64,000 nucleotides of DNA from Tagaea sp. (GTDB lineage: Bacteria; Pseudomonadota; Alphaproteobacteria; CACIAM-22H2). The notes under the pieces were generated by a model that saw only the letters and a program-made list of their open reading frames with translations, did no database searches and was not told the DNA's origin. Location: NCBI GenBank assembly GCA_965279525.1, contig CBDIIB010000004.1, forward strand, positions 160,001 to 224,000, written 5' to 3'. The position numbers and the translations under genes were made by a program. This document shows positions 14,774-52,148 of this stretch, one piece after another. Position 1 is the stretch's first letter, and every line of letters begins with the position of its first letter.

Positions 14774-14879
14774 GCGCTGTTTGACAACTGAATACATACG
14801 GCGGTTGCACGACGCACGTTGCAGTAACATCCCAATAACTTCAAAGGGATAAATACGTTACCGTAACCTGTCGTAACCT
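14774..14879 (+). repeat. Conserved noncoding element, copy 1
   Basis: Aligns with the reverse complement of 52044-52148, including identical 31-bp AACTTCAAAGGGATAAATACGTTACCGTAAC. Confidence 0.92.
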
Positions 14880-14894
14880 GTTTCCGCCGGCCGT

Positions 14895-15821
14895 TCAGGC
14901 CGCGCGGCGGGCGGGGCCACTTGTCGGGCCTTCGACCTCCGGGATCGGCGGGATCGGCACGTTCCAGGGGGCGACATCGGCGCGGATCTTGGCCAGCCCG
15001 TCCGCGATGATCGCGACCTCATGGTCGGGGTGCGTGGCGCCAAGGCCGTACTCTGCGGCAAGGGCGCGGGCGCGGGCGGAGCGCTTGCGCTCGTCCTCGG
15101 GCAGGTTGACGACGGCATAGACGCCGTTGAGCAGCGAGCCGCGCAGCTTCTTGGCGAACTTCTTGCCCAGCATCTCCTTGTCCTGGTCGGAAATCTGGTC
15201 GAAGAAGCGGCGCATGACGATGCGGCCGAACTGGATGTGGCGGGCCTCGTCGCGCAGGATCAGGCTGCATGCCTCGCGGATCGACTTGAAGCGCGCGTTC
15301 TCGTAACGGGCCTGCAGCAGTTCGCCGGAGAGCTGCTCGAACAGCGTGTTGACCGCCATGCCCGCGAAGAACGACATCTGCCGCTCTTCCTTCTCGTCGT
15401 GGAACTTCGGGATGATCTTCTTGAAGTAATCCGACTGCGGCACCGGCTGGTACTTGGCGAGCGCGTCGGCGATGCGGAAGCTTGCCTCGTGGTGGCGCAG
15501 TTCTTCCTGGATGAAGTTGACGACGTGCTGCTTCACCTCGAAGGGCTGGTGGCCGAAGATCGCGTCGCGCAGGCGTTCGGCACCGTACGGCGTGGCGCCA
15601 TGCTCCATCCACGCGCGCAGCGACCACCATTCGGCACCGGCCAGCCGCACTTCCTCGGGCAGGTCGGCCGAACGCAGGTCGGAGAAGTCGAGCTTGGCCG
15701 GGTCCCAGGCAAGGTCGCGCGCCTGTTCACACAGTTTCCAGATATCCGGATAGGCGAGCTCCGCCACGATCGGATAGGGGTTCGGATTCTGGGCGACTTC
15801 CTCGAGCATCGAGGCTTCCAT
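14895..15821 (-). CDS. Ferritin-like diiron-carboxylate protein
   Basis: Ligand pattern E(WMEHG)...EELRH...E(LFEQ)...DEARH. Confidence 0.8.
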   Translation of the reverse strand: MEASMLEEVAQNPNPYPIVAELAYPDIWKLCEQARDLAWDPAKLDFSDLRSADLPEEVRLAGAEWWSLRAWMEHGATPYGAERLRDAIFGHQPFEVKQHVVNFIQEELRHHEASFRIADALAKYQPVPQSDYFKKIIPKFHDEKEERQMSFFAGMAVNTLFEQLSGELLQARYENARFKSIREACSLILRDEARHIQFGRIVMRRFFDQISDQDKEMLGKKFAKKLRGSLLNGVYAVVNLPEDERKRSARARALAAEYGLGATHPDHEVAIIADGLAKIRADVAPWNVPIPPIPEVEGPTSGPARRAA

Positions 15822-15908
15822 GGCGCGGATCCTTCCGGATATTCGGGTCTTGGGGAAACGATAGGGCCGGCCCCCGGACTTGCCAAGGGCCGGCCCGCCG
15901 GTTTTCGC

Positions 15909-16901
15909 TCAGGGCGCGTTGACGATCTCCAGGATCTTGTCCATGCCGCCGAACTTGGCGGCTTCTGCCTGCAGCACGGGCTGCAACGCCGTGCGCCACG
16001 GGGTCTGGTCGATCTTGTGCTCCTTGGCGCCGCGCTGGCCCACGCGGACCATGGCCTGCGCCTCGAGGTCCATGTGGAGCTTGTTGATGTAGGCCGCCAT
16101 CTCGACGCCGGTCGTCGTCATGATCCGCTGCTGCTCGGGCGTGAGCCGCGTCCAGAACTGGCGCGAGAACGAGATCGCGCCGACGGCCCAGATGTGGCCG
16201 GTCTCGGTCAGGTTGGGGGCCGCCTCGAACAGCTTCAGCGATTCGTAAACACCCTTGGTGATGTCCATCATGTCGACGACGCCCGTCGAGAGCGCGTTGT
16301 ACGTCTCGGTGATCGGGATCGGCGACGGGTTGGCGCCCAGCGTGCGCCAGATGTTGATGTGCAGCGGGCTCTGGATGACGCGCATCTGCTTGCCGCGCAC
16401 CTCGGCGACCGTCAGCACGGGCTGGCGGCTGATCAGATGGCGCGCACCGTAGGTGAAGAAGGCGGGGACCTCGAAATTCTGAGCCCGGTAGAACGCCTTG
16501 TAGCGGTCGCCGATCGGGCCGTTGACGACGCGCTCGACATGCCCGACGTCGCGGAAGATGAAGGGCAGGTCGAAGATCTGCCCCTCGGGCACCCACGACG
16601 ACAGGGCGGCGAGCGTGATGTCGGCACCCTGGATCGAGCCCAGGCGCATGCCCTCGGCCATCTCCTTTTCGCCGCCGAGCTGCCCGCCGGCGAAGACCTG
16701 CAGTTCGACCGCTCCGCCCGTGCGTTCGCGCGCGAGGTCGCGGTAGCGATGCCACATCATCGCGTTGGGGGCCGTCTCGGGCTGCACCACGGCGATGCGG
16801 GCCTGGATGCGGTTCTGGGCCTGTGCATCGCCGGCCGTCGCAGCCAGCATGCCGACGGTGGCGAGAAGCGCCAGTCCGGTCAGTTTCCTCATTGCGGTCA
16901 T
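15909..16901 (-). CDS. dctP: TRAP transporter substrate-binding protein
   Basis: Signal peptide; GQLGGEKEM, FDLPFIF, MRVIQSP, ETYNALSTGVVD. Confidence 0.9.
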   Translation of the reverse strand: MTAMRKLTGLALLATVGMLAATAGDAQAQNRIQARIAVVQPETAPNAMMWHRYRDLARERTGGAVELQVFAGGQLGGEKEMAEGMRLGSIQGADITLAALSSWVPEGQIFDLPFIFRDVGHVERVVNGPIGDRYKAFYRAQNFEVPAFFTYGARHLISRQPVLTVAEVRGKQMRVIQSPLHINIWRTLGANPSPIPITETYNALSTGVVDMMDITKGVYESLKLFEAAPNLTETGHIWAVGAISFSRQFWTRLTPEQQRIMTTTGVEMAAYINKLHMDLEAQAMVRVGQRGAKEHKIDQTPWRTALQPVLQAEAAKFGGMDKILEIVNAP

Positions 16902-16924
16902 TCCAATTCTCCCGGGTTGAAGGT

Positions 16925-51096: not shown

Positions 51097-51235
51097 GCTG
51101 CACCCCGTGTCGTGAAGGACAATACTGTCGCAATCGGGAGTTCGAGGCAACTGACGCGGGCTTGCAAAGCTTGATAGAATGGCCACATTGGACGACATGG
51201 TCCCGGAAGGAAGCCCGAGAATGGAGAACGGACAG

Positions 51236-51697
51236 ATGCAGCGTCGCCACGTCCTGCGCACGGGCGGCGGACTGTGCCTGCTGGCGGCACTTTCGGCGGC
51301 GGGGTTCCTCGTGCCGAAGGCGGCGCTTGCCGCGTGGAACAAGACGGCTTTCGAGGGAAAGACTATTGCCGATGCGATGAAGGCGCTGGGGGCAAACGCC
51401 CCGGCCACGAGCGGCGACATCCAGATCGTCGTGGCAGACATCGCCGACAACGGTGCCGTGGTCCCGGTCCAGGTCGTCAGCCGGATCGCGAACACGCAGC
51501 AGATCGCGATCATGGTCGAGAAGAACCCGAACGTGCTGGCGGCGGTTTTCGATGTCGGACCCGATCTCGTGCCGGATTTCTCGACGCGCATCAAGATGGC
51601 CGAGACGGCGAACGTCGTCGTGCTCGTGAAATCGGCGGGCGGTTTTGCGATGGCATCCAAGGAAGTGAAGGTGACCATCGGCGGCTGCGGCGGCTGA
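51236..51697 (+). CDS. soxY: Thiosulfate oxidation carrier SoxY
   Basis: RR leader, IADNGAVVPV, VEKNP, TRIKM, C-terminal VKVTIGGCGG. Confidence 0.95.
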   Translation: MQRRHVLRTGGGLCLLAALSAAGFLVPKAALAAWNKTAFEGKTIADAMKALGANAPATSGDIQIVVADIADNGAVVPVQVVSRIANTQQIAIMVEKNPNVLAAVFDVGPDLVPDFSTRIKMAETANVVVLVKSAGGFAMASKEVKVTIGGCGG

Positions 51698-51725
51698 CGG
51701 TCAATCCGGGATTCGAGAGGACGTG

Positions 51726-52037
51726 ATGGCAAATCCGATGCGCATCCGCGCGAACACCAAGGACGGCGTGACCGAGATCCGCGTCCTGATGAGCCACGAG
51801 ATGGAGACCGGCCAGCGGCATGGTGCGGCGGGTGCCGTCGTGCCGGCGTGGTTCATCACGGAAGTGACGGCGACGATCAACGGCCGTCAGGTGATGCAGG
51901 CCCAGTGGGGCCCGTCGATCGCCAAGAACCCGTATTACGCCTTCAAGGTGAAGGGTGGGGCGGTCGGCGACAAGGTCAGCATCACCTGGGTCGACAACCG
52001 GGGCGAGACGCGGACGGACGAGGCCGTGATCGCCTGA
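51726..52037 (+). CDS. soxZ: SoxZ
   Basis: MRIRA, LMSHEMETG, IAKNPY, GDKVSITWVDNRG. Confidence 0.95.
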   Translation: MANPMRIRANTKDGVTEIRVLMSHEMETGQRHGAAGAVVPAWFITEVTATINGRQVMQAQWGPSIAKNPYYAFKVKGGAVGDKVSITWVDNRGETRTDEAVIA

Positions 52038-52043
52038 AACAAT

Positions 52044-52148
52044 AGGTTACCACGCGTTACGGTAACGTATTTATCCCTTTGAAGTTGCAGGCATGTTACT
52101 GCAACGGCACTCGGTGCAACCAAAACCTATTCACTTGTCAAAGAGCGC
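52044..52148 (-). repeat. Conserved noncoding element, copy 2 (inverted relative to copy 1)
   Basis: Reverse complement aligns to 14774-14879; identical 31-bp block at 52056-52086 and 14-bp block at 52093-52106. Confidence 0.92.

Follow-up and report, generated by a model that had tools for sequence, protein, structure and literature searches.

Two inverted intergenic repeats of a Tagaea sp. genome are members of a dispersed family of units with a predicted promoter and a boxA

Introduction

In a stretch of 64,000 nucleotides of a Tagaea sp. genome (contig CBDIIB010000004.1 of assembly GCA_965279525.1, positions 160,001 to 224,000 of the forward strand; this whole stretch is called the window here), two similar noncoding sequences are found in inverted orientation, copy A at 14774-14885 on the plus strand and copy B at 52148-52038 on the minus strand. 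The question raised by this locus is what the two sequences are. The original prediction, made from the sequence of the window, described them as a ~105-bp element in two copies, with a first block resembling the Nus signal boxA and a core resembling a site for the protein IHF, and it offered three explanations, i.e., a recombination site or element end by which the copies could bound or invert the 37-kb block between them, a non-autonomous repeat, or a boxA-led noncoding RNA. According to passages of an earlier study, dispersed intergenic repeats are usually filtered out of searches for small RNAs (PMC2573895). Here the pair was placed in its own genome (G000; 4.35 Mb in 5 contigs, 66% G+C) and in those of its relatives. 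The observation is real but it was mis-scoped, as copies A and B are two members of a family and no special pair. We somewhat favor the view that the members are small noncoding RNA genes, Nus-loaded and with a shared two-way terminator, whose expression is predicted from sequence.

Results

The alignment of copies A and B gave about 80% identity, and the block identical at 31 of 31 positions (AACTTCAAAGGGATAAATACGTTACCGTAAC) lies at 14837-14867 in copy A. A repeat search of the window found the pair as an inverted repeat of 66 nt with 88% complementarity, and in a blastn search of the own genome the match of A with B had an E value of 2.3e-20, so the likeness is far beyond chance. The inverted pair with all of its listed blocks was thus borne out, and the pattern of conserved blocks with varying spacers was also seen in the alignments. 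The number and the length of the copies have to be revised. The window holds only two copies, but the own genome has 21 places at E <= 1.3e-4 in blastn and 39 hits in an iterated nhmmer search (three rounds, E <= 0.01), the latter including fragments, three boxA sites of rRNA leaders or spacers and one reverse-strand echo of the palindrome. The full unit is about 170-220 bp instead of ~105 bp, since the paralogs are already homologous from about 55 bp before the reported start, where an A/T-rich tract and a -35/-10 promoter-like sequence lie; the homology of copy A to the closest relative (G012) starts at about window position 14718. Altogether, 25 units with a promoter and a boxA were counted in the genome.

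Fourteen full-length copies and then the whole family were aligned. The parts of a unit follow the order of a sigma-70-like promoter, boxA with its spacer, variable hairpins, an A-rich box, a palindromic core, extra hexamers and a T-rich tail. The 5' end is composed of an A/T-rich tract and the promoter, of which the commonest type is TTGACA-N17-CAnnnT/TATATT, and a second type, TTGATA-N16-TG-TAGGAT, is carried by copy A. The block GCGCT(C/G)TTTGA(C/A)AAGTGAATA begins about 25-35 nt after the promoter. It is followed by a hairpin region of variable length (GGTTGCA ... GTAACAT/GGTTACA), the conserved A-rich box CTTCAA.GGGATAAAT and the palindromic core (A)GGTTAC-C/G-GTAACC(T), with a further GTAACCT 10 bp on and then the T-rich tail; the extra hexamers after the core number 1-5 and are spaced 10-11 bp apart. 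Other copies of the same genome carry the same promoter and boxA module with bodies made from other hexamers, either GTTGAC-G-GTCAAC plus 2-5 more GTCAAC every 10-11 bp, or GGAGAC..GTCTCC. The 44 palindromic cores of the genome comprise 27 of the GTAAC type, 12 of the GTCAAC type and 5 of the GTCTCC type, and 42 of them lie outside crude gene calls, with 0 in reversed-sequence controls. A small protein gene was considered and rejected, because a conserved reading frame was not found over 41 copies (the conserved hairpin, measured from the spacer's GTG, fell into the three frames 21/12/8 times) and the longest open reading frame starting with ATG had a median of 20 aa in these copies. The Rfam search suggested by the original prediction gave 0 matches at gathering level in the window, the only one near copy A being P37 at E = 3.4, and the copies of seven relatives had only generic hairpin (miRNA-type) matches below the gathering score.

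A regular-expression scan of the genome found 28 boxA sites, of which 25 are in units and 3 in the rRNA operon, namely in the 16S leader (C5:1864183), in the 16S-23S spacer (C5:1866418) and in a duplicate at a contig start (C2:112). The boxA stretch reads GCGCTCTTTGAAAAGTGAATA in the 16S leader and GTGCTGTTTGACATGGTGAAG in the 16S-23S spacer, and the corresponding stretch of copy B (GCGCTCTTTGACAAGTGAATA) is identical to that of the leader at 20 of 21 bases. The identity of the leader was confirmed because the homologous leader in a relative (G005) runs into SSU rRNA (Rfam, E = 1.5e-36). The boxA of the units differs at one base from GYTCTTTAANA, which passages of one study give as the gamma-proteobacterial consensus (PMC5725501), and the ACAA..GAATA after it parallels the spacer of the rrn boxA, which binds NusA according to passages of another (PMC2724277). 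Among paralogs and orthologs alike (six orthologs at the locus of copy B, five at a second locus), boxA is the most conserved block, and CTCTTTGACAAGTGAATA is invariant across the six genomes carrying the locus of copy B. By its sequence, the boxA of the units would be an rrn-type Nus antitermination signal, and the resemblance first suggested for this block is now matched by the rRNA leader of the organism itself.

The boxA lies downstream of a predicted promoter in the units. Sigma-70-like motifs were searched within 75 nt upstream of boxA by relaxed criteria that were the same for both strands, and candidate promoters were found in sense in 13 of the 25 units, against 3 in antisense and 2.0 in shuffles. 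The copies of four genomes of a sister clade (G003, G004, G005 and G008) gave 33 of 56 in sense, against 6 in antisense and 6.6 in shuffles. A strict E. coli rule with A at the second position of the -10 box showed no bias (21 sense and 18 antisense of 81), because the -10 boxes are of the TG-n-TCGAAT or CAnnnT type. Four of five copies that lack boxA keep a near-consensus promoter, e.g., TTGATT-N17-TATAAT. At the other end of the unit, relaxed criteria called terminator-like sites in the forward direction in 45 of 75 copies, with 20.6 expected from shuffles, and in the reverse direction in 25 of 75, with 11.3 expected. The hairpin is preceded by the A-rich box and followed by the T-rich tail, as a two-way terminator would require. 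The downstream gene is convergent in 19 of the 25 units (binomial p about 0.007), a count weakened by the gene calls, which came from a crude open reading frame picker based on G+C at third codon positions and covered 81-85% of the genome. Both window copies end 3-12 bases from the stop codon of the convergent gene. The flanking genes encode FliG, SoxZ, TctA, a MiaB-like enzyme, gamma-glutamyltranspeptidase, malate synthase, a cyclase, a dehydrogenase and others, and a functional link of the units to their flanking genes was rejected as these products are functionally unrelated.

The family is confined to one genus, Tagaea-like, and is present in 14 of 20 genomes of it. The pattern GCTSTTTGAMANNTGAA occurs 6-26 times in each of these 14 genomes and 0 times in the other six (reversed-pattern control, 0); in 29 genomes of the same taxonomic family, drawn from 14 other genera, it occurs 0-1 times. 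With copy B as the query, blastn gave hits in 13 of the 20 same-genus genomes and in none of 20 genomes that each represent another genus. In a genome contig collection that may exclude the own genome, a 29-nt pattern of the 3' module was found only in metagenome-assembled genomes of Tagaea sp., in 12 stretches of 3 assemblies. The rRNA-leader variant GTTGTTTGACAAGTGAATA is carried by four of the six family-free genomes; when counted, this variant occurred exactly once in five of the six, which shows that the family is truly absent from these five genomes. For G020 the count was zero and no rRNA leader was found, so that the statement does not extend to it. Among 300 other alphaproteobacterial genomes, only G191, which belongs to another alphaproteobacterial family, has many copies (11; the others, 0-3). 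Its 11 dispersed units (L160-L170) consist of promoter, boxA and spacer with a different body, in which two copies of GGATGAACCCCATGCACCCATCTT flank a long GC-rich palindrome (GGCCCACTCCCCCTCCCAACCACCCG...), and a congener of G191 has only one boxA match. This independent family hints that the design has arisen more than once. A literature search of main texts found no description of a boxA-led repeat family, and a search with boxA letter strings gave, among the matches listed, unrelated primers.

The locus of copy B is shared with five relatives (G019, G017, G011, G007 and G013), and the loci C4:280k, C5:1745k and C5:1053k are occupied in G012, G013, G017, G019 and G011, with about 77-93% identity of the flanks. 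Four of five examined loci (that of copy B and those of the copies in L003, L007 and L010) are thus occupied in up to five other species, and only the locus of copy A varies. Since the same loci are occupied in species 77-90% identical, the copies are old, stable and not recently mobile. Copy A is present in the own genome and in its closest relative G012 (95% identical), in which the element has different upstream genes. It is missing at the end of the convergent 308-aa gene in G019, G013, G005, G020 and G017, and in the first three of these the 308-aa gene abuts the start of another gene instead.

The sister-clade set was composed of 58 sites from G003, G004, G005 and G008, two of which are rRNA leaders. 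The main type starts with TTGAAA-N17(..TGC)-TCGAAT, a small GC hairpin, GCGCTGTTTGAAAAGTGAAGAAAGACG and a variable hairpin with an A-rich loop, continues with TTGCAAC-ATGTAACC-tcGAATCGTCGyCGt-GGTTACAT, GGAAAATCAAYGGGTTAAAT, and ends in GGCGAC-G-GTCGCT-GTTT-GTCGCG-TTTG-GTAACC-TATTTC. A second type ends in 5-7 GTCGCG hexamers with an exact period of 11 nt (L118 and L144). The succession of boxA, spacer and hairpin with an A-rich loop recalls the arrangement of a phage nut site. The hairpin loop tcGAATCGTCG of G003, G004 and G005 (e.g., L110 and L111) usually contains GANTC (GAATC or GATTC), the target motif of the alphaproteobacterial CcrM methylase. A Rho-loading (rut) array, suggested by the 11-nt period, was also considered and rejected, as the sense strand is not C-rich: the mean of (C-G)/(C+G) was -0.05, -0.01 and -0.11 in three sets, and C exceeded G in only 6 of 41, 27 of 61 and 0 of 14 sequences.

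The idea that the two window copies bound the 37-kb block is not supported. They are two of about 25-39 family members, and copy B, like the three other copies tested with it, sits at the same locus in other species. The distance from the 308-aa gene to soxYZ is 35 kb here, about 3 kb in G003, G004 and G005, 9 kb in G014 and 29 kb in G006, and in these five relatives the two block-end genes keep the same relative orientation with copy A missing. In G019 the same genes are 710 kb apart in opposite relative orientation. What the block contains therefore varies strongly across the genus. In the relatives, soxZ and copy B are separated by 3-6 kb that this genome lacks, and the break falls exactly on the element's 3' end. 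The gene search proposed for HUH enzymes was carried out with the Y1 transposase family (PF01797), which has 0 matches in the own genome and 0 in 17 of the 20 same-genus relatives; the three relatives with matches do not track the family of units. The earlier statement that the window has no recombinase or transposase holds for the two families searched, as neither integrase (PF00589) nor rve (PF00665) was found in the window range. A collection of 72,556 plasmids had no match to the element. Clear terminal inverted repeats and target duplications were not found; the two ends of some copies are alike only in 7-8 nt (ATAGGTT). A clean empty site was not found either, the neighbor gene at the locus of copy A being replaced and not interrupted. 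The presence/absence polymorphism of a miniature inverted-repeat transposable element (MITE) was seen at none of the examined loci but that of copy A. The notion of a non-autonomous repeat thus stands as far as a dispersed repeat family is concerned, and fails in the lack of clear terminal repeats, an empty site and a Y1 transposase and in the stability of the copies across species. A tyrosine-recombinase gene (C5:370579-371097) lies about 2 kb from the unit at C5:373226-373500, and this is the only one of 10 integrase matches that is near a unit.

In copy A, the promoter-like site (14718..14745, plus strand) has the -35 box TTGATA, a 16-bp spacer ending in TG and the -10 box TAGGAT; the promoter scan found 1 site here against 0.2 expected from shuffles, and this promoter type (TTCCTATGATAGGAT) also precedes the copies at C4:24944 and C5:1711012. 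The boxA and spacer (GCGCTGTTTGACAACTGAATA; 14774..14794, plus) carry the motif shared with the own 16S leader and 16S-23S spacer. The variable hairpin region (GGTTGCAC ... CGTTGCAGTAACAT; 14795..14836, plus) has stem partners that differ between copies with partial compensation. Next to it is the conserved box AACTTCAAAGGGATAAATA (14837..14857, plus), a loop and A-rich tract inside the 31/31 block, which had been called the IHF-like core. The palindromic core ACGTTAC-C-GTAACCT, with a direct repeat GTAACCT 10 bp on and then GTTTCC, occupies 14855..14885 (plus). The convergent 308-aa gene is an open reading frame at 14895..15821 on the minus strand; the last repeat ends at 14882, and 12 nt (14883-14894) lie between it and the stop codon of this gene. 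Its product matched no Pfam family, and the gene is conserved in 13 of the 20 same-genus genomes.

In copy B, an A/T tract, the -35 box TTGAAT (52193-52188), a 17-bp spacer and the -10-like box CAGAGT (52170-52165) were read from the sequence at 52165..52200 on the minus strand. This promoter-like site was not called by the strict promoter scan; it aligns with the TTGACA-N17-CAnnnT promoters of other copies and is conserved in five orthologs. The boxA and spacer lie at 52128..52148 (minus). They are followed by the hairpin GTTGCAG-TAACATGC-CTGCAAC (52084..52105, minus), which is present in both the minimum free energy fold and the centroid fold and is kept in the G017 ortholog with a G-U pair (GTTGCAG/CTGTAAC). 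The conserved box, palindromic core, direct repeat and T-rich tail extend over 52038..52083 (minus), and the terminator scan called 1 site with the tail CTATTGTTTC at 52066-52046 (minus), against 0.2 expected. The convergent gene is soxZ (51723..52037, plus; SoxZ in Pfam, E = 3.7e-35), and 3 nt (52038-52040) lie between its stop codon and the last repeat, whose end is at 52041.

A gene pair of an arsR-family regulator and an AHSA1/SRPBCC protein adjoins both window copies. One pair lies upstream of copy A and outside the unit (13880..14711, plus; AHSA1, E = 9.8e-27), and the other, with an SRPBCC-like gene, is divergent from copy B (52226..53085, plus; HTH_20 and HTH_5 matches) and is syntenic together with copy B in the five relatives that share this locus. 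These pairs are probably coincidental, because G012 has copy A with different upstream genes. A second dispersed repeat, made of GC-rich palindromes (CCCGGAGGGGAGAGGGGAC...GTCCCCTCTCCCC...GGGAGAGGGTTAGGGTGAGGG), adjoins several units; it lies just upstream of those at C5:1471453, C4:24944 and C5:1053688 and also occurs at C4:1061440-1061520. In the window, direct repeats at 35276-35575/36526-36825 and 36246-36451/37496-37701, 1250 bp apart with 73-76% identity, look like tandem paralogous genes.

Discussion

The reading that we lean towards is that the units are small noncoding RNA genes, and among the explanations first offered the boxA-led noncoding RNA is the one favored by the evidence. 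RNA polymerase would start at the unit promoter and transcribe boxA, whereupon NusB and NusE, together with NusA on the spacer, would load onto the polymerase as on rRNA leaders, and this loading would allow the untranslated RNA to escape from Rho. Transcription would end after about 130-250 nt, at the terminal hairpin and its T tract, and the same hairpin read on the other strand would also terminate the convergent gene, as a two-way terminator. The RNA might serve as a trans-acting small RNA, bind a protein or insulate head-on against read-through. The family is old and not currently mobile, and selection would hold it in place. Base pairing is favored by three features of the units: each hexamer type has its own inverted partner (GGTTAC/GTAACC, GTTGAC/GTCAAC, GGAGAC/GTCTCC, GGCGAC/GTCGCC and GGTTGC/GCAACC), the hairpin arms flip between GTAAC..GTTAC and GTTGC/GTTAC..GTAAC among copies, and the stems of orthologs differ with partial compensation.

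A number of results weigh against the small RNA reading. The single-sequence folds are unremarkable, with z values of -1.55 (copy A) and -1.67, RNAalifold on 73 copies finds only the terminal hairpin, at -14.2 in sense and -13.8 in antisense, and the consensus fold of 41 copies has only -8 kcal/mol and 4 covarying pairs. The stem mismatches show no strand bias (9 G-U and 10 A-C), a count in which some automatically picked stems are wrong, and many of the relatives' copies are orthologs of each other, so that the counts are not independent. Strict terminator criteria call nothing in copy A, the variants with GTCAAC and GTCGCG arrays are without a T tract, and 6 of the 25 units are not convergent, in addition to the crude gene calls behind the position counts. 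In four RNA-library contig sets, contigs from two studies include further family copies; they match only the 3' module and come without strand, ends or level. Their loose ends trace to other copies, namely the copy B/soxZ junction and the copy near C5:1053500, and one 250-nt contig would begin upstream of the promoter of the latter. Since they have no strand, ends or level and DNA carry-over is possible, these contigs neither support nor refute the transcription of the units. Finally, short blocks in fixed register with hexamers every 10-11 bp fit DNA-binding proteins at least as well as RNA.

The last point leads to the alternative that the units act as DNA, as a modular intergenic repeat like BIME/RIP, RIME or BOX, in which the hexamers, the inverted repeats and the ATCAA..TTA box are protein-binding sites. 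IHF would then bind between two sets of sites, and the promoter and boxA would be secondary, e.g., keeping the site transcribed or open. We regard this as unlikely, but it stays a serious rival because the 10-11 bp phasing and the ATCAA..TTA box fit proteins such as IHF. The hexamers recur every 10-11 bp, which is one helical turn, up to seven times (GTCGCG at 11 bp in L118 and L144, GTCAAC at 10-11 bp in G000), the short blocks are invariant in their register and the spacers decay. The folds and mismatches, which are equal on both strands, point in the same direction, and so does the position of the units at gene ends beside genes of unrelated function. The IHF consensus is WATCAANNNNTTR. In 41 of 41 copies from G003, G004, G005 and G008, ATCAA does not vary, and the sequence AATCAAYGGGTTA, which many of them have, fits this consensus in full, whereas the two window copies read CTTCAAAGGGATA, which matches it poorly; the IHF resemblance of the core, as first proposed, is therefore weak where it was proposed and appears strong in the sister clade. 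Rhizobial genomes contain dozens of such repeats with unknown function, according to passages of PMC2573895. On the other hand, there are at least four hexamer types (GTAACC, GTCAAC, GTCTCC and GTCGCG) with a co-changing partner, which base pairing explains more easily than one protein does, and flips of the hairpin arms would not be tolerated by a dimeric DNA site. Moreover, conservation is highest in boxA, for which action is known only at the RNA level, and the promoter-like motifs are strongly strand-specific.

An improbable alternative is a processive antisense module, in which the Nus-loaded and Rho-protected polymerase passes a weak hairpin and transcribes the convergent gene in antisense, with silencing or collision as in an excludon. 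The prevalence of convergent genes, the short distance of 3-12 nt between the 3' ends of the window copies and the stop codons, and the conservation of boxA would all agree with such a module, and convincing terminators are lacking in 30 of 75 copies by relaxed criteria, in copy A by strict criteria and in the array variants that have no T tract. However, sites with a terminator-like hairpin and T tract outnumber those in shuffles about twofold in either direction, and the convergent genes share no function. Passages of PMC2724277 indicate, in addition, that rrn-type antitermination acts on Rho-dependent terminators and that only the lambda N type acts on intrinsic ones. A MITE-like mobile element or a recombination site, whose inverted copies delimit, mobilize or invert the 37-kb block, is highly improbable and for the window pair largely refuted: the family is a dispersed mosaic, in which the 5' and 3' modules come in several types and some copies are partial, copy A has a patchy presence, synteny breaks exactly at element ends (left of copy A between G000 and G012, 3' of copy B between G000 and five relatives) and some copies have ATAGGTT at both ends, but against this stand the occupied loci in diverged species, the lack of a clean empty site, of a target duplication, of a Y1 transposase in the genome, of an integrase or rve transposase in the window range and of a plasmid match, and the constant orientation of the block-end genes at 3-29 kb in five relatives that have no copy A.

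Returning to the small RNA reading, the closest system for comparison is the rRNA operon leader (boxB-boxA-spacer/boxC; NusB, NusE, NusA and NusG, together with SuhB). The units share with it the boxA and the ACAA...AAUA spacer as well as the location of boxA a few tens of nt downstream of the promoter, and many copies of G003, G004 and G005 have a small GC hairpin before boxA, as boxB in the rrn leaders. In contrast to the leaders, the units are followed by no rRNA and only by 100-250 nt of noncoding sequence, they are dispersed, with 15-26 copies per genome as compared with one or two rRNA operons, and their promoter and remaining leader sequence are unrelated to those of rrn. To our knowledge, boxA outside rRNA operons and lambdoid phages has been described from single loci, e.g., suhB and CRISPR leaders, and the original work on the CRISPR leaders is reportedly that of Stringer et al. 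in 2020. Like the units, these have a boxA ahead of a non-rRNA, but each of them is one locus that belongs to a defined gene or array, whereas here a whole paralogous family is found with neither a gene nor CRISPR repeats behind the boxA. In the suhB 5' untranslated region, boxA changes the action of Rho on the transcript, according to passages of PMC5725501, whose authors also place noncoding RNAs outside their boxA survey; the boxA of CRISPR leaders is used in PMC7862264.

Among dispersed repeats, the enterobacterial BIME/RIP are composed of REP palindromes flanking an IHF site; they occupy the 3' end of a transcription unit and in many cases separate convergent genes. The units resemble them in having palindromes and a putative IHF-type box at the 3' ends of transcription units, and differ by their own promoter and boxA, by direct hexamer arrays and by the absence of a RAYT/Y1 transposase from the genome. 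Pneumococcal BOX elements are like the units in being modular, intergenic, promoter-linked and lineage-specific with a variable number of short subunits; they belong to another lineage, have another sequence, and their 'boxA' is unrelated to the Nus boxA. We know of no promoter or boxA reported for the alphaproteobacterial RIMEs, Sm-repeats and AB/C palindromes. These have, like the units, dozens of intergenic copies with shared sequence and secondary structure, according to passages of PMC2573895, whereas the Tagaea family is restricted to its genus; this distinction was drawn from published descriptions.

A broader proposal is made here only tentatively, namely that orphan Nus-antiterminated RNA genes are an unrecognized class, in which dozens of promoter and boxA modules per genome drive short RNAs with phased hexamers head-on to gene ends. 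Such units could be coupled to rRNA transcription, by competing for NusB, NusE or SuhB or by responding to growth rate like rRNA promoters, and their RNAs could be linked into a network, each one pairing with the terminator sequence common to the 3' ends of other module-bearing genes.

For the annotation of this genome, the result means that the two copies mark no mobile or invertible 37-kb island. If the small RNA reading is true, a conserved family of 15-26 boxA-led noncoding units per genome would extend Nus antitermination to small RNAs and would offer a natural system for studying why some untranslated transcripts need protection from Rho. The case of Tagaea suggests, from sequence comparison, that dispersed intergenic repeats can be old and selectively maintained transcription units and not selfish DNA.

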